Source: Cenarchaeum sp. (GTDB taxonomy: Archaea; Thermoproteota; Nitrososphaeria; Nitrososphaerales; Nitrosopumilaceae). From it: a stretch of 32,000 nt of DNA. The DNA is taken from the NCBI GenBank assembly GCA_963693095.2, contig OY843768.1, positions 174,715 to 206,714 on the forward strand. The letters are read 5' to 3'. Position 1 is the stretch's first letter. Every line of letters begins with the position of its first letter. The translations under genes and the position numbers were made by a program. Positions 633 through 23,586 of this stretch are shown here, one piece after another. A model generated the notes under the pieces. The model made no database searches and was not told where the DNA came from. It was given only the letters and a program-made list of their open reading frames with translations.

Positions 633-977
633 GGCATCCGCGGCGCATGGCGTTTTACTTAAATCTGCTTGCCGGGCGCCTGCGATGCCCTGCATGAAAC
701 GTGGTGGAGTGGGCAGGAATGCCCGCCTGGGGCAGATCCGGACCCCCTGGTGGCTCCCCTGCCTGCCCCGTGGGCTCGCAGCCACGCCTGGATCGCCGTG
801 CTGAGCCACACCCAGTGTGGGGCCTTTCGTGGCCATGATCGCACGGCTCGTGCCTGCCACGATCGGCCATCCTGCGGCACGCCGACCCAAAAATGGCCCT
901 AATGGCCAATTCGTGCCTACGTATTTGTGCAGAATCGCGAAAGGGTTAAAAGGCTCTGATATTCGCGGGGGACGCAG

Positions 978-3110: not shown

Positions 3111-3184
3111 AGCTCCGAGTGGGATCCGAACCCACGACCTTTACCTTACCAAGGTAACGCTCTACCAGGCTGAGCTATCGGAGC
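3111..3184 (-). tRNA. tRNA-Thr (anticodon GGU)
   Basis: Reverse complement GCTCCGATAGCTCAGCCTGGTAGAGCGTTACCTTGGTAAGGTAAAGGTCGTGGGTTCGGATCCCACTCGGAGCT folds by hand into a cloverleaf. It has a 7-bp acceptor (GCTCCGA/TCGGAGC), a D arm (GCTC/GAGC), an anticodon stem (TTACC/GGTAA) with loop TTGGTAA, and a T arm (GTGGG/CCCAC). No encoded CCA. Confidence 0.9.
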
Positions 3185-7682: not shown

Positions 7683-8621
7683 CTAGCGCTCTATCTGGTC
7701 AATGTCGAGGCTGCACGGAACGCTAGACTCGGCCTCGGCCCAGTCAAGCGTCATGTCCGACGGTATTGCGCCGAGTGGATCGTATGCGTCAAACTTTGAT
7801 GCGCCGCGCAGCTCCGAGACTACGACAATGCCCTCCTTGCCCGTGCCAGTCGGCATTGCAGTGGCCTCGCCGCCTGTCATGCCCGAGACTGCCTCCACTG
7901 TCTCGGCGATTGCGCCAACGGGCACGTCATCGCCGGTGACGTGAATGAGCGAGCCGCCGATCGTGCCGTTCGCGGCCCCCTCGTGGATCATCTTTATGGC
8001 CTCGCGCAGCGACTCCTCGAGGCCGGCGCCCGCACTCGATGCGGCGACCATGCTGTCGCCGCCAGGGACGCTGCCGGCGCCGATCGAGCCAACAACGTGC
8101 ATGATTGCCGCATTTGCCATCTCTATGCAACTGCGCGCCCCCAGGTTTGGGTTGCCCTCTAGCATTGCGTCATTGTCTACGATGATCGAGCAGTCGCTTG
8201 CCTCACGCAGCCTCTTTAGGGCGATTCCGGCACCGAATATGCGATCGTGCTCATAGCCAAAGGGCATTATCGCAACCGAGATGACGCGCTTGCCGGCACT
8301 GGCCGCAGCGGCGGCCACCATGGGGGCGATTCCGGCCCCAGAGCGGCCCGCGAGGCCTGCCATTATGATGACTGTCCGGGTGTCTCTGGCGGCCTCTAGG
8401 ACGCGCTCGGCCTCCCTGCGCGCTGCGGCGCGTATGACGTGAACCGTGGGATTGATGACCGGTGCCGTGGAGACCTCTATGGAGGCCTCGCCGTGGAGGT
8501 CAGAGGCGACGTTGCTCACGAGTACGTGCCCTGCGCCTAGCCTCGAGGCGGCCTCTGGCGCTAGCCTCGAGCCCGCGCCGCCTGCCCCGACGATCATGAT
8601 CGGCTCCAATACTGTGGTCAC
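7683..8621 (-). CDS. FtsZ/tubulin-superfamily protein with degenerate GTP-binding signature (thaumarchaeal FtsZ-like)
   Basis: Aligns by eye to FtsZ. IMIVGAGGAGSRLA matches IKVIGVGGGGGNAV. IIMAGLAGRSGAGIAPMVA...VISVAIMPFGYE matches FIAAGMGGGTGTGAAPVVA...VAVVTKPFNFE. IIVDNDAML matches ITIPNDKLL. GTG start at 8621, with a TATA-like box at 8641-8655. Confidence 0.7.
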   Translation of the reverse strand: MTTVLEPIMIVGAGGAGSRLAPEAASRLGAGHVLVSNVASDLHGEASIEVSTAPVINPTVHVIRAAARREAERVLEAARDTRTVIIMAGLAGRSGAGIAPMVAAAAASAGKRVISVAIMPFGYEHDRIFGAGIALKRLREASDCSIIVDNDAMLEGNPNLGARSCIEMANAAIMHVVGSIGAGSVPGGDSMVAASSAGAGLEESLREAIKMIHEGAANGTIGGSLIHVTGDDVPVGAIAETVEAVSGMTGGEATAMPTGTGKEGIVVVSELRGASKFDAYDPLGAIPSDMTLDWAEAESSVPCSLDIDQIER

Positions 8622-8695: not shown

Positions 8696-10060
8696 TTAGC
8701 TCATCGCCACGGCCAAGAGGCAGTGAGTCGTCGCCCTGGTCACCTCGGCCTCTAGGCGCTCTCCTGCCGGGGCACTGCCGCACCCATCAACGTCGAGCTG
8801 CCTGTAGGCCCCGTTGCGGCCCACCATGCCTCGCTCGCCCCTGCCGGTGAGCCTGACCTGGCCCTTCCAGCCGACCCACGCCTCGCTGGCCTCGAGTACG
8901 ATCCTGCCGGCCAGGTCGTGTATCTCCTTGCTGCGCCGCTTGACGGCCCGCTCGTCGGGGCGCTCGAGCAGGGCCGCCTCGGTGCCCGGCCTGGAGCTGT
9001 ACCTGGAGAGGTTTACAATGTCAGGCCGCGTCTCCTCGAGGAGGCGCACGGTCTGCGCATGGTCATCGTCAGTCTCGCCGGGATAGCCGACGATGATGTC
9101 AGTGGCCACGGTAAATCTCGCAAAGCGCCGCCTCATCGTCTCGCACGCGCGCGCAAACGTCTGCGCCGTGTGACCACGCTTCATCGCGCCGAGGATGGCG
9201 TCGCTTCCGCTCTGGACGGGCATGTGGAGGAATCGGTATATGCGCGGATCGGCCTCCATGGCGTCTGCAATGCCGTCAAGCGTGCGACCCGCGTACATTG
9301 GGTTCATCATGCCAACGCGCACGCCAAAGTCGCCCTCGACGTCGCTTACTGCGCGCAATAGCTCCGGCAGGCTCGAGTCGATGTCATGCCCATAGCACCC
9401 GTTGTCAGTCGACGTTAGCCATATCTCACGGCACCCGTCGCGCACATCGGCGCGAACCTGCCTGACGATATCGCCGACGCGATAGCTCTGAAGTCCACCC
9501 TTTGCGAGCTTTGTCTGGCAGAATGAGCACTCACTCATGCACCCGCTTGCAATCTCGACTATTCCCACCAGTGGATCCAGGCGCACCTTTGGCAGGCCGA
9601 CCTTTGTGTCTGTCCCGTCAAGCGCAACGCGCCGCTCGCCGACAAGGGCTGCATTGACAAGCTCGCCGGCGCGCGATATTGCTCCCGGCCCCATCATGCC
9701 GGCCTGCGGCGTAATCTTGCGCACGGTCTCTGGCTCGGCCTTTGCCATGCATCCGGCAACGACTAGTGGTCTTGAGGAGAGGTGTCGCATTCGCTGGATC
9801 ATGCGTCTTGCCGTGGCGTCCTTTACCGAGCACGTGACGATGACACTAGCGTCGGCATCGCCCTCGCCGTCAGCTATCGTGTGGCCCTCTGAGCGCAGGA
9901 CACCGGCGATCATCTCCGAGTCGGCCCTGCTCGCCGAGCACCCGTACTCTTCAATGTGGACCCTCGCCGTGGCCGCCTCACCTGAGTAGCGCGTCCATCT
10001 CGGCGCTCGTTGCAATCCCGCCGGCGACTGCAAGCTCCCTGATCGTCTTGCCTGTTGCAA
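8696..10060 (-). CDS. MiaB/MtaB-family radical-SAM tRNA methylthiotransferase
   Basis: N-terminal UPF0004 cysteines (EEYGCSAS, VTCSVKD, VAGCMAK), radical-SAM CMSECSFC motif and a C-terminal TRAM-like region. Start uncertain. Only TTG codons (10060, 10033, 10015) precede the conserved VHIEEYGC, and all overlap the 3' end of the upstream gene. Confidence 0.8.
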   Translation of the reverse strand: MQQARRSGSLQSPAGLQRAPRWTRYSGEAATARVHIEEYGCSASRADSEMIAGVLRSEGHTIADGEGDADASVIVTCSVKDATARRMIQRMRHLSSRPLVVAGCMAKAEPETVRKITPQAGMMGPGAISRAGELVNAALVGERRVALDGTDTKVGLPKVRLDPLVGIVEIASGCMSECSFCQTKLAKGGLQSYRVGDIVRQVRADVRDGCREIWLTSTDNGCYGHDIDSSLPELLRAVSDVEGDFGVRVGMMNPMYAGRTLDGIADAMEADPRIYRFLHMPVQSGSDAILGAMKRGHTAQTFARACETMRRRFARFTVATDIIVGYPGETDDDHAQTVRLLEETRPDIVNLSRYSSRPGTEAALLERPDERAVKRRSKEIHDLAGRIVLEASEAWVGWKGQVRLTGRGERGMVGRNGAYRQLDVDGCGSAPAGERLEAEVTRATTHCLLAVAMS

Positions 10061-11389: not shown

Positions 11390-11500
11390 GTATGAGGTCA
11401 GCACCCTCGCCTGTTCATGCCTGGGCAGACGCCGCAGTGGCAAGTCGATATGCCGGATCACGCCCATTTGGTCAAATGGGCAGAGGTGCTGACCTCATAC
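11390..11500. repeat. repeat element A: 111-bp unit with perfect 16-bp terminal inverted repeats and one palindrome-containing ~50-bp unit
   Basis: GTATGAGGTCAGCACC (11390-11405) is the exact reverse complement of GGTGCTGACCTCATAC (11485-11500). Inside, 11462-11481 is the 20-bp palindrome GCCCATTTGGTCAAATGGGC. Confidence 0.75.
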
Positions 11501-11506
11501 TGGTAG

Positions 11507-13611: not shown

Positions 13612-13779
13612 GGCGGGGATTTTGACCCCCCCATGATATCTTTATTGGCGTTTTGTCTAGAACTATCTCGACAGGACCTGTATTTCACATTGAAATGATG
13701 GCGAAGGACTCGAATGGGCGACCACTACTTTCCGTGCAAAACAAGAGACGGGGCTTTGTCCACAATGATCCCTCAAAAG

Positions 13780-14063
13780 GTATGAGGCCAGCACCACGTG
13801 TGATCATTTGACCAAATGGATGCACCTTGTCCATCTACTTGCCACTGCGACGTCTGTCTAGGCACGAACGAGCGGTGGTGTTGACCAGGCCCGGCGCCCT
13901 AGAGAGATCCTCGATGGCCTCGATCCTGCCGTTGAGCTGCGCCACCATGCTGTCCGGGTTCCGGTCCTGTTGCCCCGTCACGCCCCTGGGGCAGGCGTCG
14001 CGGCAGATGGATCGGCAGGATCACGCCTATTTGGTCAAATGGGCAGGGGTGCTGACATCATAC
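13780..14063. repeat. repeat element B: 284-bp unit bounded by two inverted copies of the ~50-bp palindrome-containing unit
   Basis: Left copy 13780-13826 (GTATGAGGCCAGCACC...CATTTGACCAAATGG) and right copy 14013-14063 (...CCTATTTGGTCAAATGGGCAGGGGTGCTGACATCATAC) are in inverted orientation. The terminal 16-mers are complementary at 14/16 positions. Confidence 0.75.
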
Positions 14064-14080
14064 CCCAAAACCCATGATCC

Positions 14081-14092
14081 CCTTATATATGG
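14081..14092 (+). promoter_or_regulatory. TATA-box-like element of the nirK-like gene
   Basis: CCTTATATATGG lies ~20-30 nt upstream of the ATG at 14112 and 18 nt downstream of repeat element B. Confidence 0.5.
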
Positions 14093-14111
14093 GCCAAATG
14101 GGGGCGTGGCA

Positions 14112-15494
14112 ATGAACACAAGACAACTACGCACGCTACTCCCCGTGGCCGCAGTCGCGGCAGTGGGGATGACGCTGCTAGGAAGCTCCTACACGCAGAC
14201 ACAGATATCGGGCATGACGCTAGACACGTCAGCACTAGACATTGACGCCATACAGCAGATCCACGACATGGGCGGCCTCAGGCTAGTCATGCCGGAGGCA
14301 TTCGCACAGATGGACTGTGGCGACCTTGACACATCAGGGCGCGACATAGTCAACCTGGACCTAATCGGCGAGAGCGTAATGCTGCCGATCATGGGTCACA
14401 CCGCAGAGAACCCAAAGACATTCCATGCAATGACCTTTAACGGCCAGGTGCCAGCACCTACGCTGAGGGTCACGCAGGGCGATGTTGTGAGGATGACGCT
14501 GACGATTCCGGACGGTGAACTAACGCCGCACGGCAACGACATGCACGCCTCACAGATATCGGCAACAAACTTCGATGCGGTAAACCCAGGCGAGTCAGCA
14601 ACGTACTGCTACATAGCACACGTTCCAGGCGTCTTCAAGTACCACTGCTCGGGCGTTAACGTCGCGGCTATGGACCAGCACGTCCTCTCGGGCATGTATG
14701 GCATAGCCATCGTCGACCCGCTCGACGGCTACAAGAGGCTCATGGTCGAAAAGACGGCAGTAGAGAACGGAGAGGTCGTAAAGGACAGGATGTTCTATCC
14801 GCCTGACGCACTCGAGTTCCAGCTGCAGTACAACCAGCTCTACCTGACTGACTCTGGCACATATGACAGCACGGCAATGTTCAAGCACCAAAACACGCAG
14901 ACAGTCGTCAACGGAATGCAGTTCGGATACGTCCCCAACGAGACGCACAACACCCTAGTCAAAGATGATCCCAAAAAGAACATCTTTGTGGCACAGCCAT
15001 GGAACTCCGAAGACCTCGCACAGTACCAGTCGCAGCTCCTCTTCGTGGAGACCGACCAGCACGTGAGGTTCTTTGTTGAGAACCAGGGCAACGAGCCGGT
15101 GTTCTTCCACATTGTCGGCGAGATCCTAGACAGGGTCACGCAGGGCAACAGAGTCCAGTCCGGGCCTACCGAGACGTGGCTCCTTGGAGGATCGCAGAAC
15201 ATGATCGTCGACGTCGTCTTTGACGAACCGGGCGTATACGTCGCAGTCAACCATGACTATGCGGCGATATTCTCTGGTGCGGCGACGATCATAGTGGCTG
15301 GAGACCCCTTTGGCCTGGTCGAAAAGCACGACCTGCCAGATGCAGTGTCCAAGTCATACGCGTATGCGCTAGGAAACCCGAGTGACGCAGTCCCTCCGAT
15401 GGGAGATCAGAGCATGGAGCACCCAATGGTGAACCTGCACGGCCTCTACACCGACGAGCGGGCTGCAGAGCTCAGCACACAGCTCGGCCTATAG
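14112..15494 (+). CDS. nirK: NirK-like two-domain multicopper oxidase (copper nitrite reductase family) with signal peptide
   Basis: MNTRQLRTLLPVAAVAAVGMTLLG signal-like N-terminus. PHGNDMHA matches NirK HNIDFHA (T1 and T2 His). YHCSGVNVAAMDQHVLSGM supplies the His-Cys...His...Met ligands. FFHIVGE and VAVNHDY are in domain 2. ORF 13827..15494 trimmed to the ATG at 14112, because the upstream part is repeat element B. Confidence 0.8.
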   Translation: MNTRQLRTLLPVAAVAAVGMTLLGSSYTQTQISGMTLDTSALDIDAIQQIHDMGGLRLVMPEAFAQMDCGDLDTSGRDIVNLDLIGESVMLPIMGHTAENPKTFHAMTFNGQVPAPTLRVTQGDVVRMTLTIPDGELTPHGNDMHASQISATNFDAVNPGESATYCYIAHVPGVFKYHCSGVNVAAMDQHVLSGMYGIAIVDPLDGYKRLMVEKTAVENGEVVKDRMFYPPDALEFQLQYNQLYLTDSGTYDSTAMFKHQNTQTVVNGMQFGYVPNETHNTLVKDDPKKNIFVAQPWNSEDLAQYQSQLLFVETDQHVRFFVENQGNEPVFFHIVGEILDRVTQGNRVQSGPTETWLLGGSQNMIVDVVFDEPGVYVAVNHDYAAIFSGAATIIVAGDPFGLVEKHDLPDAVSKSYAYALGNPSDAVPPMGDQSMEHPMVNLHGLYTDERAAELSTQLGL

Positions 15495-15564: not shown

Positions 15565-16494
15565 TTGGCCGCAAACTCTGCCCTGATATGCGACAAGGTT
15601 GACCCCATACTCAACAAGATACTCTCCGATAACGGGATTGAGGTGACCTACGAGCCAGAGATCACGCCTGAGGCCCTCCTCGAGTCAGTCGCAGACTGCA
15701 CGATAATCGTCGTGCGCAGCCGCACAAAGGTGACCTCTGAGGTCATTGCGCGCGCTACGTCATGTAAGATAGTCGCGCGTGTCGGAGTCGGCCTAGACAA
15801 CATCGACACTGAGGCGTGCAAGGCGCGCGAGATACGCGTCCTCAACGCAGTCGAGGGCGCGATGAACGCCGTCGCCGAGCTCGTCCTGGCTCTCATGCTC
15901 TCGATGGCACGCCAGATACCACGCGCCGATGCTGCCCTGCGCGAGGGGCGCTGGCTCAAAAAGGAGCTCGTGGGCAGCGAGCTGCGCGGCAAGTACCTCG
16001 GGATCGTCGGCATGGGCAACATTGGCAAGCGCCTCGCGCGCCTCGCGCGCTCGCTAAACATGAACATAATCGGCTATGACGTCGTGCCCATCGACGCCGA
16101 GCTCTCGCGCGAAGTTGGGCTGATGAAGGCCGACCTTGACACGCTGTTCCAGAGCTCCGACTATGTCTCGCTCCACGTGCCCCTCCTCGACTCGACGAAA
16201 AACCTCGTTGATGCGCGACGCCTTGCGATGATGAAGCCGACTGCACGCCTCATCAACACGTCGCGTGGGGGAATAGTTGACGAGGATGCGCTATATGACG
16301 CAGTCTCATCAGGCAAGCTTGCCGGCGCGGCACTTGACGTCTTTGATGTCGAGCCGGCCACGTCTAGCCGGCTCAGGGAGCTCGAGCAGGTTGTCCTCAC
16401 GCCGCACATGGGCGCGCAGACGGCCGAGGCCCAGGGACTTGCGGCCAACGTCATTGGCGAAAAGATAGTGCAGGCAGTGCGCGGCGTCATCTAG
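15565..16494 (+). CDS. D-isomer-specific 2-hydroxyacid dehydrogenase, SerA-like (short form, no ACT domain)
   Basis: VARVGVGLDNID, NAD motif GIVGMGNIGKRLARLA, HVPL, and RLINTSRGGIVDE...LDVF...E...TPHMGA catalytic region. TTG start at 15565, with a TATA-like GTTATAAC ~28 nt upstream. Confidence 0.8.
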   Translation: MAANSALICDKVDPILNKILSDNGIEVTYEPEITPEALLESVADCTIIVVRSRTKVTSEVIARATSCKIVARVGVGLDNIDTEACKAREIRVLNAVEGAMNAVAELVLALMLSMARQIPRADAALREGRWLKKELVGSELRGKYLGIVGMGNIGKRLARLARSLNMNIIGYDVVPIDAELSREVGLMKADLDTLFQSSDYVSLHVPLLDSTKNLVDARRLAMMKPTARLINTSRGGIVDEDALYDAVSSGKLAGAALDVFDVEPATSSRLRELEQVVLTPHMGAQTAEAQGLAANVIGEKIVQAVRGVI

Positions 16495-17260
16495 CGCGGC
16501 GCGCAATTCGCGCAGCAGCGGCCCCGCCGCCGATTCCATTGTCAATGTTCACCGTTGCGAGTCCCGGCGAGCAGCTCTGCAGCATGGATGCCAGCGCGGC
16601 GGCCCCGCGGCCGGCATGGCCGTACCCGACTGACGTCGGGATGCCGATGACGGGTATGTCGACTAGCGAGGAGACTACTGTGGCGAGGGCTCCCTCCATT
16701 CCGGCCACGACAATGATCGCCCCAACGTCACCTTTGGCCATTTGCTCCACTGCCGGAAACACCCTTCCGAGGGCCGCAATCCCTACGTCGTACTCGGTTG
16801 TGCACTTGCAGTCCATGGCCTCGCACATGAGGCGGGCCTCCTCGGCGACGCCAATGTCTGACGTGCCGGCGGCCATTATGCCGACGCGCCCGAGCACGCG
16901 CCGCCTGCGCCCCTTTTTTGCCAGCACGGCAGTCGAGCGGCGCGCAAGCGTGACGCTTGCGCCCAGTGACCTGAGGTGGGCTGCCAGCGCACCCCTCTCC
17001 CTTGCGCGAACCCTTGACACCAGCGCGACGCCCGAGCTCTTGAGGAGCCTTGATGCTATGGCCCTAGTCTCGGCTGCAGTCTTTGTCGAGGCGAGGACTA
17101 CCTCGGGTGCGCCGGTTCGATCGCGCCTTGATGTGTCAACGCGCGCAAACCCGCCTACGCGCTCTATGGAGTTGAGCGAGATTAGCGTTCGTGCGCGCTG
17201 CGCGCCGATGCGCCCTGACTGCAGCGACTCTAGTATCTCGTCGAGCTCCATCGCGCGCAT
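16487..17260 (-). CDS. larB: LarB-like (PurE-related) nickel-pincer cofactor biosynthesis carboxylase/hydrolase
   Basis: ~120-aa N-terminal domain followed by a PurE-like domain (VGIMAAGTSDIGVAEEA...VVAGMEGALATVVSSLVDIPVIGIPTSVGYG). This matches the COG1691/LarB architecture, and larC and larE are nearby. Confidence 0.75.
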   Translation of the reverse strand: MRAMELDEILESLQSGRIGAQRARTLISLNSIERVGGFARVDTSRRDRTGAPEVVLASTKTAAETRAIASRLLKSSGVALVSRVRARERGALAAHLRSLGASVTLARRSTAVLAKKGRRRRVLGRVGIMAAGTSDIGVAEEARLMCEAMDCKCTTEYDVGIAALGRVFPAVEQMAKGDVGAIIVVAGMEGALATVVSSLVDIPVIGIPTSVGYGHAGRGAAALASMLQSCSPGLATVNIDNGIGGGAAAARIARRAR

Positions 17261-17282
17261 TCTGAGCTGTGCGGATAAATAC

Positions 17283-18191
17283 CTAGATGCCGGCTATGGC
17301 CGCCTTTACGCTAGCTGCTGCAGCATCAAGGACACCGCGCTCGGCCTCGTCCAGGTCGAGCTCGACTATGCTCTCTACGCCGTTGCGCCCTATGATGGCC
17401 GGCACGCCAAGCGCAATTCCCGAATGACCATACTCGCCCTCGAGGGGAGTCGAGACCGGTATGAGCTGCTTTTTGTCGCGCACGATCGACTCGATGAGCG
17501 CGGCTATGGCGTTTCCGGGGGCGTGAACAGTCGCGCCCTTTAGGGATATGACCTTGGCGGCGACCTTTTTTGTCGACTCTACGATCTCGTCTAGCTTTTC
17601 GCGCGGGAGCATGTCAGTCAGCGGTATTCCGGAGACTGAGGAATGGCGGACGAGGGGCAGCATGTTCACGCCGTGCTCGCCGATGACTAGCCCCCTTATC
17701 GAGTCGCGCGACTTGCCAGTTGCCCCGTGTATGAACTCCCTAAAGCGCGACAGGTCAAGCATCCCGCCCATGCCCACGATGCGGCTCCTCTCAAAGCCTG
17801 ACTCCTTGTGGGCCACGTGAACCATGGGATCAAGCGGGTTTGTCACCGGTATTATGATCGAGTCTGGCGCGTGCCTTTTCGTCTCGGCCACGACGCTTGT
17901 GACGACCTTTGAGTTTATCTTTAGGAGGTCCATGCGCGTCATGCCGGGCTTGCGACCTGCGCCGGCCACGACGACCACAATGTCCGAACCGGCCATCTCG
18001 GCATAGTCGTTGGAGCCGCGGACATTGACGTCGATTCCCAGCTCGGCTAGCGCGTGGCTCGTGTCCATCGCCTCGCCCTGCGGGAGGCCTTCTGCAATGT
18101 CGAGGAGGAGTATCTCGGTGTCTAGCCTGCGCAGCGCGCTAAAGAGGGCAGCGTCGCCGCCGACCTTGCCAGAGCCCACAATCGTGATCAT
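17283..18191 (-). CDS. mdh: malate dehydrogenase (LDH-like MDH family)
   Basis: [12 protein letters not shown] Rossmann start, [15 protein letters not shown] (Arg at the substrate-discriminating position), IGEHG. ORF 17283..18260 trimmed to the ATG at 18191, which has a TATA-like GGTTTAATTAC ~25-35 nt upstream. Confidence 0.85.
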
Positions 18192-18298
18192 CTGTGCGCA
18201 GGGGCTCTGTGCTGCGTAATTAAACCTAGTGTGGTCTTTGAGTGTGGGGCCGGCACCCATGTCAGCCTATGCCCGAATAGGCGTAGCGGCCAAGTAAA

Positions 18299-18336
18299 CC
18301 GGCAGAATCAACGCCCATTTGACCAAATGGACATTG
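18299..18336. repeat. repeat unit C (palindrome-containing unit, 3' part missing)
   Basis: CCGGCAGAATCAACGCCCATTTGACCAAATGGACATTG matches the 5' two-thirds of the family consensus. It ends 1 nt from the stop codon of the 18338..18937 gene. Confidence 0.7.
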
Positions 18337-18365
18337 CCTAGAGTGAGAATTCTCGATATTCTTGT
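18337..18365 (-). pseudogene. remnant of the 5' end of the 3-TM gene, fused into the C-terminus of the 18338..18937 ORF
   Basis: GAATATCGAGAATTCTCAC (minus strand) matches GAATATCAAGAATTCTCAC at the start of the 19092..19682 gene (MRISRILT). The ATG is lost, and homology stops at repeat unit C. Confidence 0.5.
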
Positions 18366-18937
18366 GCCTGCGCGCTCTGTGTTCCGAGCAGAGACCCCGC
18401 AATGTCATCATACACCCTGGGCACGCGCTCTTGGTTGATTATGAACCAGCCGCGCGCCTCCTCGATCATCTCCTCGCGCGTGAGCGTCCTGCCCCCTGCG
18501 CGCATCTTGTCCTCAATATAGCACAGCGTCGAGGCGATCTCGAGCCACTCGACGTCATCGATGCGCTCGCGCGCGAGCTCAACAAACTCTTCTCTGCGGC
18601 TCCATTCCTGCGCGGGCTCTGAGTGCAGGTCCTTGAGCCCCCAGATGTCAACCTCGAACCCAAACGCGTGGGGGCTGGTCATGCTCCAGTCATAGACGTA
18701 CCTCTCCAGGTTGGGGCAGTCGAGCCTATGCTTTGCAAAGTAGACGAGTATGTTCAGGGACAGGCGCGTGGCGTTGCTCTTCCAGCTCTGATACATGTCG
18801 CACGGGATGACGCCGGCGTCACAGAGGACATGAAGTATGGGAACCGGGGATCCAGGGACGATCATGCCCCCGTTGGGGAGCGACTCGGTCGGCACCATCC
18901 TGTACCCCTCGACATTGACGTATCCCCGATCCTGCAT
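18338..18937 (-). CDS. hypothetical protein, paralog 1 of a duplicated unknown family (199 aa)
   Basis: MQDRGYVNVEGYRMVPTESLPNGGMIVPGSPVPILHVLCDAGVIPCDMYQSWKSN... is close to nine-tenths identical by eye to the 19679..20254 product. Own TATA-like box 24-33 nt upstream. Confidence 0.6.
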   Translation of the reverse strand: MQDRGYVNVEGYRMVPTESLPNGGMIVPGSPVPILHVLCDAGVIPCDMYQSWKSNATRLSLNILVYFAKHRLDCPNLERYVYDWSMTSPHAFGFEVDIWGLKDLHSEPAQEWSRREEFVELARERIDDVEWLEIASTLCYIEDKMRAGGRTLTREEMIEEARGWFIINQERVPRVYDDIAGSLLGTQSAQAQEYREFSL

Positions 18938-19091
18938 CGGACAGGAAACGGCCCCTGGAGCTTATAATCCTATCCTGAGATACTGCTTTAACCACGAATG
19001 TGCACGGGCAGTCGTCTCCCAAAGACTGACTACCGGATGGTGGAGTATTCGGGATTGGCCGCCATCTCTGCCACATGGCACAATATCTGGG

Positions 19092-19682
19092 CTATGCGCG
19101 CGCTAGATCCTCGCGCACGTTCTTGCCCCGTGTCTCTCTAATGTACTTGGATATTTTCATTGCAGACCCTTGAATCCACTGGATATCGGAGACGTGGACG
19201 GTGTCTTTTTGCAGGTTGCTTATCATCTGATCGACTATACGGAGCGGCTTTGTCTTGAAGCTGCGCTCCACCCTGGCGCTGACCACTGCACTCTTTATGC
19301 TATAGACGTGCATTATGAACATCACCCTGTGGTGATCTGGGACAGTTGCCCTTTGTGGTTCTATAGACGACTTGAAGAGTGCCTCTATGGTACGCTGGCA
19401 CATCTTGTGCAGGGTTGATAGTGACTGGAGCACAGAGTCAGTCTCCTCGCCATACCGAAACCTCTCTGCCTGTTGGGTTATCGTGTAGCTGAACACGCCT
19501 AGCACGTATGCATAGTATCCGCATATGACGGCCACCCCTAGCGCCATCAGGGACGTTAGCAGCGAAATGGCGCCATAGACGCTTCCTGTTGCGATCAGCG
19601 TGCTCCAATAGATCGCCACTAGCCCGCCGCCTATGACTCCGGCGGGAAGCATTCCCAGGGTGAGAATTCTTGATATTCTCAT
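19092..19682 (-). CDS. hypothetical membrane protein (three N-terminal TM helices + ~120-aa soluble C-terminal domain)
   Basis: ILTLGMLPAGVIGGGLVAIYW, SVYGAISLLTSLMALGVAVICGYYAYVLGVF, then a charged domain. Its ATG overlaps the TGA of the upstream paralog-2 gene (ATGA at 19679-19682). More AT-rich than its neighbours by eye. Confidence 0.6.
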   Translation of the reverse strand: MRISRILTLGMLPAGVIGGGLVAIYWSTLIATGSVYGAISLLTSLMALGVAVICGYYAYVLGVFSYTITQQAERFRYGEETDSVLQSLSTLHKMCQRTIEALFKSSIEPQRATVPDHHRVMFIMHVYSIKSAVVSARVERSFKTKPLRIVDQMISNLQKDTVHVSDIQWIQGSAMKISKYIRETRGKNVREDLARA

Positions 19683-20303
19683 GGCTGTGTACCCCCAGTT
19701 CCGAGCAGCGACCCCACAATGTCGTCGTACACCTTGGGCACGCGCTCTTGGTTGATTATGAACCAGTTGTGCGCCTCCTCGATCATCTCCTCGCGCGTGA
19801 GCGTCCTGGACTCTGCGCGCATCTTGTCTTCAATGTAGCACAGCGTCGAGGCGATCTCGAGCCACTCGACGTCATCGATGCGCTCGCGCGCAAGCTTGAC
19901 AAACTCTTCGCTCCTGTCCCACTCTTGCGCGGGCTCTGTGTGCAGGTCCCTGAGCCCCCAGATGTCAACCTCGAACCCAAACGCGTGCGGGCTAGTCATG
20001 CCCCAGTCATAGACATACCTCTCCAGGTTGGGGCAGCCAAGCCTGTGCTTTGCAAAGTAGACGAGTATGTTCAGGGCCAGGGACACGGCGTTGCTCTTCC
20101 AGCTCTGATACATGTCGCACGGGATGACGCCGGCGTCACAGAGGACGTGGAGTATGGGAACCGGGGATCCAGGGACGATCACGCCCCCGTTGGGGATCGA
20201 CTCAGTAGGCACCATCCGGTATCCCTCGGCATTGACGTATCCCTGATCCTGCATCGGACAGGAAGCGACCCCTGGAGCTTATAATCCTACCCTGAGATCC
20301 TGC
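19654..20303. repeat. 650-bp segmental duplication, copy 2
   Basis: See copy 1. The right boundary (20303) abuts repeat unit D (20304). Confidence 0.85.
19679..20254 (-). CDS. hypothetical protein, paralog 2 of the duplicated unknown family (191 aa), translationally coupled to the 3-TM gene
   Basis: MQDQGYVNAEGYRMVPTESIPNGGVIVPGSPVPILHVLCDAGVIPCDMYQSWKSN...; stop/start overlap with 19092..19682; TATA-like box GGATTATAAG upstream. Confidence 0.65.
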   Translation of the reverse strand: MQDQGYVNAEGYRMVPTESIPNGGVIVPGSPVPILHVLCDAGVIPCDMYQSWKSNAVSLALNILVYFAKHRLGCPNLERYVYDWGMTSPHAFGFEVDIWGLRDLHTEPAQEWDRSEEFVKLARERIDDVEWLEIASTLCYIEDKMRAESRTLTREEMIEEAHNWFIINQERVPKVYDDIVGSLLGTGGTQP

Positions 20304-20357
20304 GTATGGGAGCCGACACCACTGCCCATTCGGTCAAATGGGCATTGATCCTGCCGG
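20304..20357. repeat. repeat unit D (full-length palindrome-containing unit, inverted orientation)
   Basis: Reverse complement CCGGCAGGATCAATGCCCATTTGACCGAATGGGCAGTGGTGTCGGCTCCCATAC aligns along its full length with units at 11453-11500 and 14013-14063. Confidence 0.7.
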
Positions 20358-20390
20358 TGCGCTGGCATTATCATCGGCCACGCCCACAAC

Positions 20391-20400
20391 AATTTATATC
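20391..20400 (+). promoter_or_regulatory. TATA-box-like element of the larC-larE-nifS operon
   Basis: AATTTATATC lies 24-33 nt upstream of the larC ATG (20424) and 33 nt downstream of repeat unit D. Confidence 0.45.
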
Positions 20401-20423
20401 ATTTTTGTCGCGCACGGCCAGCC

Positions 20424-21638
20424 ATGGCGCTAGTCATAGACGCACAGGTTGCCGGAATATCCGGAGACATGCTCCTGTGCTCGCTGGTTCACATGGGGGC
20501 CGACCCCGCAAGGATAGAGTCTGCGCTCATGCGTGCGGCCTCTGGCCTCCAGGGCGAGGAGGTCAAGGGCATCTCCTTTGAGCGCGTGAGGCGCCATGGG
20601 CTCGAGGCTACTGCGCTGCGCGTTGACTCGTCTGGCGCGCCACACTCGCGCGCCGCCTCGGAGCTCGCAGCGCACATTGCGTCCTCGGCCGCATCATGCA
20701 AGATATCAGGGCAGGCCGCCTCGTTTGCCTCGCAGAGCGTCCAGACGCTCATCGCCGCCGAGTCGGCAGTTCACGGCGTTGGCGCATCGTCGGTTCACCT
20801 CCACGAGGCTGCCGGAGTCGACACGCTCATTGACATACTCGGCACGGCAATTGCACTCGATGACCTGGGCCTCCTCTCGGAGCGCATAACATGCACCCCC
20901 GTGGCAGTCGGCGGGGGACTCTTAGAGTTCTCACACGGCGTCGCATCCAACCCCGCCGGCGCGATACTCGAGATATTCCGCCGACGCGGCATTGAGATCC
21001 GCGGCGGGCCGGCCGGCGTGGAGCTCACGACACCGACTGGCGCTAGCATGCTCGTCAACCTCGCCTCCTCGTGCGAGCGGTTCTACCCGCCACTCTCGCC
21101 GACTGGCATCGGATATGGCGCCGGCAGCGCCGAGCACGACGCGTTTGCAAACGTTCTCAAGGTCGTGCGCGGGACCGAGTCTGCCGCGCTTGCAGCCGAC
21201 ACGGTCCGCGTGCTTGAGACCAACCTCGATGACGTCACCGGCGAGCTCCTCGGCCACGTCATCGACGAGCTCATGCGCAAGGGTGCGCATGACGTGACTG
21301 TCTCGCCGGCGGTCACAAAAAAGGGGCGGCCCGCAAGCTTGCTGACTGCAATATGCGACGCGCGCTCGTATGATGACGTGCTGCGCGCGCTAGTCGAGGA
21401 GACCGGAACGCTCGGCGTGCGCGTGCGCGACTCGAACAGGGTTGTCGCAAGGAGGGACTCGGCGACTGTCAGGGTCACCGTGGAGGGCAGGCAGTTCGAT
21501 GTGCGCCACAAGGCAGCGCGCGGTGGCATTCCAAAGGTGGAGCACGACGACGTGGCCCGCGTGGCCTCTGAGCTCGGCATGCCGCTGAGGAGAGCACGCC
21601 GCCTCCTCGATGATGCCGTGTCAGGGGGTCGGCAATGA
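20424..21638 (+). CDS. larC: LarC-like (DUF111) nickel insertion protein for the Ni-pincer nucleotide cofactor
   Basis: N-terminus MALVIDAQVAGISGDMLLCSLVHMGADP matches the LarC/UPF0272 start (...GISGDM.LGAL.D.G). ~400 aa, single ORF. Followed by larE with an ATGA overlap. Confidence 0.85.
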   Translation: MALVIDAQVAGISGDMLLCSLVHMGADPARIESALMRAASGLQGEEVKGISFERVRRHGLEATALRVDSSGAPHSRAASELAAHIASSAASCKISGQAASFASQSVQTLIAAESAVHGVGASSVHLHEAAGVDTLIDILGTAIALDDLGLLSERITCTPVAVGGGLLEFSHGVASNPAGAILEIFRRRGIEIRGGPAGVELTTPTGASMLVNLASSCERFYPPLSPTGIGYGAGSAEHDAFANVLKVVRGTESAALAADTVRVLETNLDDVTGELLGHVIDELMRKGAHDVTVSPAVTKKGRPASLLTAICDARSYDDVLRALVEETGTLGVRVRDSNRVVARRDSATVRVTVEGRQFDVRHKAARGGIPKVEHDDVARVASELGMPLRRARRLLDDAVSGGRQ

Positions 21639-22432
21639 CGCGCATCGCCGCGCTGCGATCGTGGTTTGAGGGCCATGACTGCCCGCTAGTGGCGCTCTCT
21701 GGCGGCGTCGACAGCGCGCTAGTCGCCCACGCGGCCCACTCGGTGACGCCCCGCGCAATCGCGTTCACGGCCGACTATCAGGCGCTGCCTCGCGAGGATC
21801 TCGAGGCGGCGCGCAAGACGTGCGACGAGATTGGCATCGAGCACATGGTCGTGCAGTACGACGAGCTCCTCAACGAGTCCTATGCGACAAACACGCCTGA
21901 CCGCTGCTTTCACTGCCGCACAGAGCTCGGCGAGCGCCTAGTCGAGGCCGCGCGGCGCGTCACTGCCGATGTCATAGTCGACGGGACGCATCTCGATGAC
22001 ATGGGCGACTATCGTCCCGGCCTTGAGGCCATGCGCGCTGCCGGCGTGCGCAGCCCGCTCGCCGAGTCTGGACTCACAAAGGACGACGTGCGCGAGTGCG
22101 CGCGCGCCGTCGGGCTCTCGGCGTGCGACAGGCCTGCCAACTCGTGCCTCGCCTCGCGGATACCGTGGGGCCGGCGCGTCACTGCCGAGAGGCTCGCGCG
22201 CATAGAGCTTGCCGAGAGGATTGTGCGCCAGGCCACGGGCATTGGCATCGTGCGCGTTCGCGACACGGGTGATGAGACTGCGCGCATCGAGGTTCCGCAC
22301 GACAGCATCGGTGAGCTGCGGCGCTCGATGGACTCGCAGATATCGCCGCGCCTGCGCACACTGGGGTACCTCGAGGTGAGCGTGAGCGAGCGCGGATACT
22401 CGCAGGGCGGGGCAAACGCGGGGGCGCAATGA
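21635..22432 (+). CDS. larE: LarE-like PP-loop ATP-dependent sulfur transferase
   Basis: PP-loop VALSGGVDSALVA. DRCFHCRTELGERL and ANSCLASRIPWG are LarE-like motifs. Overlaps the larC stop and the nifS start. Confidence 0.85.
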   Translation: MTRIAALRSWFEGHDCPLVALSGGVDSALVAHAAHSVTPRAIAFTADYQALPREDLEAARKTCDEIGIEHMVVQYDELLNESYATNTPDRCFHCRTELGERLVEAARRVTADVIVDGTHLDDMGDYRPGLEAMRAAGVRSPLAESGLTKDDVRECARAVGLSACDRPANSCLASRIPWGRRVTAERLARIELAERIVRQATGIGIVRVRDTGDETARIEVPHDSIGELRRSMDSQISPRLRTLGYLEVSVSERGYSQGGANAGAQ

Positions 22433-23586
22433 TCTACCTCGACAATGCCGCATCGACGCCGATCCACGAGATCGTCCTTGAGGCGATGATGCCGCACCTG
22501 AGCGCCGGCTATGGCAACCCGTCATCGATCCACCGCAGCGGGCGCGATGCGGCACGCGCAATCACTGCGGCGCGCGCACAGGTCGCGGCCCTCATTGGCG
22601 CCGCACCGCACGAGATCATATTCACGTCGGGCGGGACCGAGTCCAACAACATGGCGATACTCGGCCTCGCGCGCGCGCAGCCGAACTCGCATGTGATAAC
22701 GACGCAGATCGAGCACGAGGCGGTTCTTGAGCCGTGCGCGCTCCTCGAGTCAGAGGGCCACGATGTCACGCGCGTGCGTGCCGGCCATGACGGGATCGTC
22801 GATCCGGCCGACGTTGCGTCTGCGATGACTGACAGGACATCGCTCGTGTCAGTCATGACGGCCAACAACGAGGTCGGCACGGTTCAGGACATTGCATCGA
22901 TCGCCTCTGAGTGCGCGCGTCGCGGCGTGCCCCTCCACACCGACGCGGTCCAGGCAGTCGGCAAGATGCCAGTCAATGTCGTGGCGCTAGGCGTCTCGCT
23001 CCTCTCGCTCTCTTCGCACAAGATCAACGGCCCAAAGGGCGCTGGCGCCCTCTATGTGCGCGATGGCCTGCGCCCGTCGCCGATCGTGCGCGGCGGAGGA
23101 CAGGAACGCGGCGTGCGCTCTGGAACCGAGAACGTCGCGGCGATCGTCGGCCTGGGGGCGGCGTGCGCGCTCGCCTCGGCACAGATGGCCGATGACGCCA
23201 CGCGCGTGGCTGCTATGCGCGACGCGCTAGTCGCCGGCGTCAGGGCGCGAATACCGCACTCGTCGCTCAACGGCGATGCCGCAAGGCGCCTGCCGGGCAA
23301 CGCGCACTTTGCGTTCCTTGGCATCCAGGGCGAGGACCTGATAATAAAGCTCGACGAGTGCGGCGTCGCAGCATCGACTGGCTCGGCGTGCTCGATACAC
23401 ACGCAAAAAGAGTCGCACGTCCTGCGCGCGATGGGCATGGGCAAGGAGGCAATCGACGGCTCGCTGCGAATGACTGTCGGCCCGCAGAACACGCAGGCCG
23501 AGATCGACTCGGCCATAGGCGCACTCGAGTCATGCGTCGCGGATCTTCGGCGTGTCTCGCCGTTTAGGCAAAAGTACGGGTTTTAG
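22429..23586 (+). CDS. nifS: cysteine desulfurase (NifS/IscS class V aminotransferase)
   Basis: IYLDNAASTP, FTSGGTESNN, PLP-lysine context SLSSHKINGPKGAGALYVR, active-site STGSACS. Confidence 0.9.
   Translation: MIYLDNAASTPIHEIVLEAMMPHLSAGYGNPSSIHRSGRDAARAITAARAQVAALIGAAPHEIIFTSGGTESNNMAILGLARAQPNSHVITTQIEHEAVLEPCALLESEGHDVTRVRAGHDGIVDPADVASAMTDRTSLVSVMTANNEVGTVQDIASIASECARRGVPLHTDAVQAVGKMPVNVVALGVSLLSLSSHKINGPKGAGALYVRDGLRPSPIVRGGGQERGVRSGTENVAAIVGLGAACALASAQMADDATRVAAMRDALVAGVRARIPHSSLNGDAARRLPGNAHFAFLGIQGEDLIIKLDECGVAASTGSACSIHTQKESHVLRAMGMGKEAIDGSLRMTVGPQNTQAEIDSAIGALESCVADLRRVSPFRQKYGF

Follow-up and report, generated by a model that had tools for sequence, protein, structure and literature searches.

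The DNA analysed here (the window) is a 32,000-nucleotide (nt) stretch of contig OY843768.1 of Cenarchaeum sp. (assembly GCA_963693095.2, positions 174,715 to 206,714 of the forward strand), high-GC archaeal DNA with a GC content of 60.5 %. The subject of this work is a block of about 2 kb lying between the divergently oriented mdh and larC genes, whose minus strand carries three open reading frames (ORFs), in transcription order A2, TM and A1 (Table 1). A1 and A2 encode acidic proteins and TM a basic protein with transmembrane (TM) segments, and it is argued below that the three may constitute a toxin-antitoxin cassette inserted into a metabolic gene cluster. The nearest relative of the window in the searched collections was the Cenarchaeum sp. 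metagenome-assembled genome OY843584.1, from which loci L002 and L003 come.

As stated in the original prediction, A1 and A2 are two acidic paralogs of ~195 amino acids (aa); they are 88 % identical without any gap, both contain the motifs that had been quoted for them, and the stop codon of A2 overlaps the start of TM as ATGA, the plus strand reading tcat at this position. The TATA-like boxes of A1 and A2 (ATTATAAG in both cases) are identical, and the A2-TM operon has a single such box, located 5' of A2. The similarity of the two genes is part of a gap-free 649-nt copy (18337-18985 corresponding to 19654-20302, 90 % identity, period 1317 nt). Since the ATGA was lost in the A1 copy, the tail of A1 (...EYREFSL) is a read-through into the remnant of the TM gene. 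The synonymous divergence (dS) between A1 and A2 is 0.22, in comparison to 0.03-0.13 between window genes and their L002 orthologues, hence the duplication predates the split of these two genomes.

All three cassette ORFs are intact in L002. Between the window and L002, the ratio of non-synonymous to synonymous divergence (dN/dS) was 0.03-0.13 in the flanking genes; A2 and TM had values of 0.28 and 0.30, and A1 one of ~1.2, the latter coming from the small counts of 13 non-synonymous and 3 synonymous changes. Judged by these substitution patterns, A1, A2 and TM appear to be real genes under selection that is relaxed relative to the housekeeping flanks, with A1 possibly drifting or diversifying. 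Conserved catalytic-looking residues were not found in the A family.

The original prediction described the TM product as a protein with three TM helices and a soluble tail. The tail was found, a basic soluble region of ~125 aa, whereas hydropathy gave two hydrophobic stretches, at approximately residues 6-29 and 33-67; two helices are thus the most likely count, three being possible. The TM gene is also more AT-rich than its surroundings, as had been noticed, with 52.6 % GC in comparison to 59.5 % in the A genes and 61-68 % in the flanking genes; the GC content at third codon positions (GC3) of the A genes equals that of the host genome. In the alignment of four loci TM is most conserved in the membrane region (IGGGLV, GYYAYxLGVFxY, then AExFR..EETDS), so the helices may do more than anchor the protein, e.g. 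mediate self-association. No informative match to TM was obtained in Pfam, NCBIfam, PADLOC, PHROGs or PDB, and two weak matches (Csx27, E 0.03; a PHROG, E 0.3) were treated as noise. The tail contains a stretch, RATVPDH, resembling the HEPN Rx4-6H motif, but it was rejected as such because it is not kept in the homologues.

The block had been proposed to be an insertion that splits the lar genes, and the comparison of related mdh-larC junctions bore this out. A metagenome scan with LarC gave 22 loci from more distant relatives (41-53 % identity), which were mapped by tblastn. Every one of them that reached the junction had the arrangement larB(-) mdh(-) / larC(+) larE(+) (nifS), with mdh and larC as direct divergent neighbours. 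The mdh-larC spacer of the ~18 related Nitrosopumilales loci is usually ~90 nt, and neither A nor TM was present at the junction in any of them (0 of ~18). The cassette at this site is shared solely with L002, the protein identity between the two being 93-96 % for the cassette, mostly 99 % for the flanks and about 96-97 % for larB and nifS. Removal of the segment from 18244 to ~20380 leaves ~90 nt that hold both TATA boxes, like the ancestral spacer. On the strength of this synteny, the view that the ~2.15-kb block (18244 to ~20380) is a lineage-specific insertion in the Cenarchaeum lineage is well supported. In one more distant clade another ORF occupies the mdh-larC spacer (L025 5373-5942, also L024, L026 and L028), with 189 aa and a signal or anchor at its N-terminus, so the junction is variable in more than one lineage.

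The search for relatives of the A proteins gave nothing usable in Pfam, NCBIfam, PADLOC and PHROGs for A1 and A2, and PDB sequence searches with A2 and the distant member P0012 gave nothing meaningful. Distant members of the family carry the motif KLxYLA..F....Y..YGPYS, and the A family profile aligned with PDB entry 7yk3_B, the C-terminal domain (CTD) of DarG, on the motif KLxYF...YGPYS (E 0.9, rank 2). The AlphaFold2 model of A2 built from a 16-sequence alignment had a predicted local distance difference test score (pLDDT) of 80 and a predicted TM-score (pTM) of 0.79, while the one built from a 4-sequence alignment (pLDDT 47) was unusable. Submitted to Foldseek, as the original prediction had advised, the better model gave 7yk3_B as the top and only credible match, over the full length (probability 0.96, E 0.13, TM-score 0.42); the comparison with viral structures gave noise only. 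Two family members were matched by the PADLOC DarG model, P0012 with E 2.6e-4 (at positions 182-286 of the 329 of the model) and P0016 with E 5e-3. Finally, the A family was aligned by hhalign with the C-terminal domains of DarG from eight genuine plasmid DarT-DarG loci, with a probability of 67 % and P 5e-5, in comparison to 0.1 % for the macrodomain, 0.1 % for the reversed control and <=1.6 % for 30 column-shuffled controls.

Provisionally, these four independent comparisons, each weak by itself, suggest that the A proteins are remotely related to the C-terminal domain with which DarG binds its toxin, with confidence over the core only; the reliable alignment covers a core of ~50-115 residues at 11-17 % identity. 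A and the DarG domain are both acidic and helical. The latter binds and inhibits the toxin DarT and is homologous to DUF4065 (PMC13621843). Panacea/DUF4065 antitoxins neutralise dozens of unrelated toxins by direct binding, among them three validated membrane-depolarising TM toxins (PMC8832971). Because the Pfam DUF4065 model misses the A family, it is named here DarG-CTD-like and not a Panacea member; the plasmid DarG C-terminal domains are likewise unmatched by that model.

Members of the A family are very rare, with 3 matches in a word-indexed search of 5.8 billion proteins and 18 in an exhaustive profile search of 1.84 billion representatives. Clustered at 90 % identity, A1 and A2 fall into a group of five members, which come from three assemblies, and the cassette is confined to Cenarchaeum-type assemblies. 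Homologues of TM were found solely beside A genes, in Cenarchaeum-type contigs, and each of the four independent Cenarchaeum-type loci, which represent two chromosomal sites, has A and TM as neighbours. At the second, diverged locus the gene order is A-A-TM, upstream of homoserine dehydrogenase, with identities to the window proteins of 54-58 % for A and 46 % for TM. The order A then TM is common to L001, L002 and L003, and the genome behind L002 and L003 carries both cassette copies. The A copies are 88 % and 67 % identical within the two locus types and ~55 % identical between them. As the copies within a locus are closer to each other and the arrangements differ, the antitoxin gene appears to have been either duplicated twice, independently, or homogenised by gene conversion.

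In L001 and L003 the second locus directly follows genes for a PbeA-like helicase, an MzaB-like ATPase, SspA, SspB and SspC. This phosphorothioation-type defence island upstream of A-A-TM (L001 1-9063, L003 15-8925) gave strong PADLOC hits (HATPase for the MzaB-like protein), and neither SspD nor SspE was seen within the fetched 10 kb of the L001/L003 island. At the same site in L032, from the same metagenome, an IS630-like transposase gene lies between the A copies and TM.

The distant A homologues P0008, P0025 and P0026 occur without TM. Their neighbourhood is conserved and consists of an HEPN_AbiV protein, a 472-482-aa protein, A and a convergent 279-345-aa protein; the L007 version of the second of these has 475 aa and a weak AbiV-like N-terminus. 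HEPN proteins often act as toxins or as effectors of abortive infection. This context fits a promiscuous antitoxin domain, but only by guilt by association. The conserved ~280-aa protein convergent to the distant A homologues (L004 8722-9558, L007 8719-9561, L033 3162-4001) has Walker-A-like (GPGVGLT) and Walker-B-like (VLVLDAMES) motifs reminiscent of a terminase-type ATPase and had no Pfam or PHROG match. A tblastn search of phage genomes with a distant A member gave nothing useful, and scans of 2.9 million viral contigs revealed no relative of either the close or the distant A subfamily.

The cassette had been described as bounded by two repeat units, C and D. Inverted repeats are indeed present at its ends (18298-18336 and 20320-20358, 39 nt, 87 % complementary), but they are not private to it. 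Both align as parts of a dispersed ~112-nt element with terminal inverted repeats of 16-22 nt (GTATGAGGTCAGCACC...GGTGCTGACCTCATAC), unit C being the right part of the copy now called C and unit D being copy D. Five copies or part-copies are present in the window and one in L032, and the window has 5 occurrences of the 16-nt palindromic core CCATTTGRYCAAATGG where 0.01 would be expected. The element is thus short, multi-copy and equipped with terminal inverted repeats (GTATGAGGTCAGCACC), as is a miniature inverted-repeat transposable element (MITE). Pairs of such elements bracketing cargo genes form MITE-flanked composite cassettes. Likewise, the inverted copies C(+) and D(-) bracket ~2 kb of cargo with their core-proximal termini pointing inward, and a neighbouring cargo of 2.3 kb is enclosed in the same manner by E1(+) and E2(-). 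Unlike in a complete composite, copy C is truncated and copy D has no outer half. A target-site duplication was not seen at any copy, and a cognate transposase for the element was not identified. The elements are probably MITE-like repeats, which either carried the cassette to this place or mark where it was inserted. The idea that the palindromic core is a private operator or boundary was rejected: it is part of a dispersed element, and in L002 the cores of C and D have degenerated at either end of the cassette, which means that they are not conserved operators.

L002, although otherwise collinear, lacks the 2.68-kb segment 11382-14063 that runs from E1 to E3. As L002 has 232 unrelated nt at this position, the site is not cleanly empty there; the right breakpoint lies within 4-5 nt of the end of the element at 14068, the two sequences being homologous again from 14064 on. 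This segment probably represents a second toxin or defence cassette with repeats at its ends, its two ORFs being listed in Table 1. They were also considered as homologues of the AbiV-context proteins of the distant loci, but BLASTP showed no such homology.

Some further features of the repeats were noted. The core-proximal terminus of the element (...CATAC) lies 18 nt 5' of a TATA-like box twice, at the multicopper-oxidase gene (E3; 14068-14115) and at A2 (D; 20254-20304). This identical spacing, which E1 and E2 do not have, may be due to chance, to a preference for certain targets or to the element contributing to the promoter. Copy D of L002 contains an insertion sequence (IS; 8784-9866) with a rve-type (DDE) 344-aa transposase ORF (8814-9848), inverted ends TACGAAAAGTAGTAGACT and an apparent 19-bp duplication GCGTGGCCGACGATAATGC. 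A ~47-nt remnant like the right end of this IS was seen by eye in the window at ~13697-13745, and its left end resembles window 685-759 (77 % identity).

Table 1. Coordinates of the features discussed (positions in the window unless L032 is indicated)
Feature	Position	Strand	Description
A1	18338-18937	-	199 aa, pI 4.8; own duplicated promoter, putative toxin gene absent behind A1
A2	19679-20254	-	191 aa, pI 4.7; first of two operon genes
TM	19092..19682	-	196 aa, pI 9.7, basic; putative membrane toxin
ATGA, A2 stop / TM start	19679..19682	-	plus strand tcat
TATA-like box of A1, ATTATAAG	18961..18968	-	~23 nt 5' of A1 ATG; read from sequence
TATA-like box of A2, ATTATAAG	20278..20285	-	~23 nt 5' of A2 ATG; 18 nt from element D terminus
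Duplicated segment S'	18337..18985	-	promoter, A1 and ~25 nt left over from the 5' end of the TM gene
Element copy E1	11390-11501	+	full length, 112 nt; 22-nt terminal inverted repeats GTATGAGGTCAGCACC...GGTGCTGACCTCATAC
Element copy E2	13781-13892	-	full length, inverted
Element copy E3	13950-14068	+	reaches right terminus, left terminus diverged; ends 18 nt 5' of multicopper-oxidase TATA box
Element copy C	18244-18336	+	near-complete, without last ~16 nt; right end stops exactly at duplicated segment
Element copy D	20304 to ~20380	-	right ~75 nt, inverted; terminus GTATGGGAG abuts cassette
Element copy in L032	7302-7410	-	full length, ~330 nt upstream of A promoter (~7717-7750)
440-aa ORF, E1-E3 segment	11507-12829	-	no family match
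178-aa ORF, E1-E3 segment	13075-13611	+	HEPN-type RNGLAH motif; weak Pfam HEPN match, E 0.077
mdh, left flank	17283..18191	-	NCBIfam malate dehydrogenase, 359 bits; 99 % identical to L002
larC, right flank	20424..21638	+	Pfam and NCBIfam matches
larE	21635-22432		downstream of larC
nifS	22429-23586		downstream of larE

The interpretation that we favour, and to which we give an even chance of being correct, is that the block is an accessory cassette inserted at the mdh-larC promoter region, flanked by MITE-like copies and encoding a DarG-CTD-like antitoxin and a putative membrane toxin. Since Panacea antitoxins neutralise membrane toxins, a type II-like toxin-antitoxin module with a new membrane toxin is the best reading of the pair. 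According to this model the cassette would have entered, within the Cenarchaeum lineage, the divergent promoter region of mdh and larC, ancestrally ~90 nt long, the ~112-nt element having brought it in or at least marking a recombination-prone insertion site. TM, with its strongly conserved helices and a tail that would be cytoplasmic, would damage or depolarise the membrane when free. A2, as a small acidic cytoplasmic protein, would bind TM directly and hold it inactive in the manner of type II antitoxins, and loss or titration of A, caused e.g. by locus loss, stress or virus infection, would free TM. A1 would be a later tandem duplicate with its own promoter, giving extra or variant antitoxin.

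The genetic layout found, i.e. a bicistronic arrangement of small proteins with the antitoxin gene first and overlapping stop and start codons, is that of type II systems. The contrast in charge between acidic A (pI 4.7-4.8) and basic TM (pI 9.7), the antitoxin-first order, the ATGA coupling and the strict co-occurrence of A and TM appear to fit a type II pair of the PanA/PanT-membrane pattern, and the lack of conserved catalytic-looking residues in the A family agrees with it as well. Like PanA/PanT (PMC8832971), A2-TM is a two-gene operon of a soluble DarG-CTD-related antitoxin and a partner with TM helices, here a putative toxin, and as in Panacea the antitoxin domain seems to be reused with unrelated partners, TM in Cenarchaeum and the HEPN/AbiV context elsewhere. 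In contrast to PanA/PanT, the antitoxin gene of the cassette is duplicated. PanT and TM are likened by description, TM having 196 aa and a large soluble tail, and the link of A to Panacea is second-hand, through DarG (PMC13621843). The differences from DarTG are clear: A is archaeal and a stand-alone protein, it has no macrodomain (no Pfam match, and the 0.1 % hhalign probability given above), and its partner is a membrane protein and not DarT/DUF4433, which adjoins DarG in the genuine DarTG loci fetched for comparison. None of the catalogued defence systems in PADLOC-DB v2 matched A1, A2 or TM at E<=1. Of the resemblances suggested in the original prediction, to toxin/immunity or phage-defence modules, the toxin/immunity one gained from the remote DarG homology and the genomic context.

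Several observations weigh against the toxin-antitoxin interpretation. Pfam DUF4065 (PF13274) matched 0 of 21 A-family members at E<=1, the PADLOC DarG matches concern the distant members P0012 and P0016 and not A1 or A2, and each of the DarG signals is weak alone, given the TM-score of 0.42 and a confident hhalign region of ~48 columns. Small membrane toxins are typically shorter than TM, which has 196 aa and a soluble domain of 125 aa. The defence association rests on few loci, and the trio in L032 stands at the same site without the Ssp island. As to mobility, both close genomes contain the A-TM-A cassette, so that no movement of its own was observed, and the lack of relatives in viral contigs is neutral for a toxin-antitoxin role and offers no support for virus-borne mobility.

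The first alternative, which we consider rather unlikely, is that A and TM are a non-toxic accessory pair, TM being a lineage-specific sensor, anchor or sponge-host-interaction factor and A its cytoplasmic partner or adaptor, with a fold that is merely a generic protein-binding module. A conserved soluble domain next to conserved helices suits a structured membrane protein equally well, no known toxin or defence model matches TM, and sponge-associated Thaumarchaeota have many lineage-specific genes (PMC7848895). On the other hand, the sole detectable relatives of A are antitoxin domains, the coupled antitoxin-first operon, the charge complementarity and the repeated antitoxin duplication are typical of toxin-antitoxin modules, and the placement in variable, defence-rich and IS-rich spots is also toxin-antitoxin-like.

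A dedicated abortive-infection system, in which a viral trigger removes or titrates A and TM kills the infected cell, would be a refinement of the toxin-antitoxin interpretation and is not exclusive of it; as a specific proposal it seems improbable. The position of the L001/L003 copy directly after the PbeA-like, MzaB-like and SspA, SspB and SspC genes and the HEPN_AbiV neighbourhood kept by the distant A homologues agree with it, and DarTG and Panacea-type modules have been reported as phage-defence systems. Against it stand the failure of PADLOC to recognise A1, A2 and TM, the L032 trio devoid of Ssp genes and the location of the window copy among metabolic genes. It is very improbable that the pair is a remnant of a virus or mobile element, with TM as a holin-like protein of a lysis or egress cassette and A as its regulator: although a small membrane protein with a soluble partner, the lower GC of the TM gene and the IS copies and MITE-like repeats around the loci could be read in this way, neither A subfamily was found in the 2.9 million viral contigs, PHROGs gave no hits, hallmark genes of viruses are absent from the surroundings, the A genes have host-like GC3, and the cassette genes are under purifying selection in two genomes. 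A function in the lar (nickel-pincer cofactor) pathway, e.g. as a nickel transporter and its chaperone, hardly deserves credence and was rejected as contradicted by synteny, its one argument being the position between larB-mdh and larC-larE-nifS: the genes are absent from the junction in the ~18 loci retaining lar genes, they recur at an unrelated site beside homoserine dehydrogenase, and the genome of L002 and L003 holds both copies.

The cluster around the insertion is itself well conserved. The divergent arrangement larB-mdh / larC-larE-(nifS) (window 16487-23586; L010-L030) is common to ~18 Nitrosopumilales loci and is followed by paralogous PEFG-CTERM-type surface proteins; a larA-like gene was not seen beside it in the window or in L010-L030. 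A D-2-hydroxyacid dehydrogenase gene (15565-16494) adjoins it in the window. The start of mdh is probably MITIVGSG at 18191, judged from the start in L002. The sole match of an Rfam scan of the window was a tRNA at 3111-3184.

The lar cluster of this Cenarchaeum is accordingly interrupted by foreign DNA and not enlarged by new pathway genes. A wider proposal, which is possible but tentative, is that in Cenarchaeum-type sponge symbionts inverted pairs of the ~112-nt element package ~2-kb toxin-antitoxin or defence cargo and insert it into the promoter regions of housekeeping clusters, two such packages being present in the window (A-TM-A, and the HEPN-like and 440-aa ORFs), that A is an archaea-specific, hitherto unrecognised branch of the DarG-CTD/Panacea fold and that TM, with IGGGLV and GYYAYxLGVFxY, is a new class of membrane toxin. 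Hardly any work has been devoted to toxin-antitoxin and defence modules in ammonia-oxidising archaea, and surveys based on Pfam or COG (such as PMC7848895) would miss this cassette because no Pfam model recognises A or TM. If the favoured interpretation is right, the promiscuous DarG-CTD/Panacea antitoxin fold would reach Nitrososphaeria, the membrane-toxin families would gain a new member, and the window would provide a concrete case, from a symbiont restricted to its host, in which small repeats move accessory cassettes to conserved junctions of operons.

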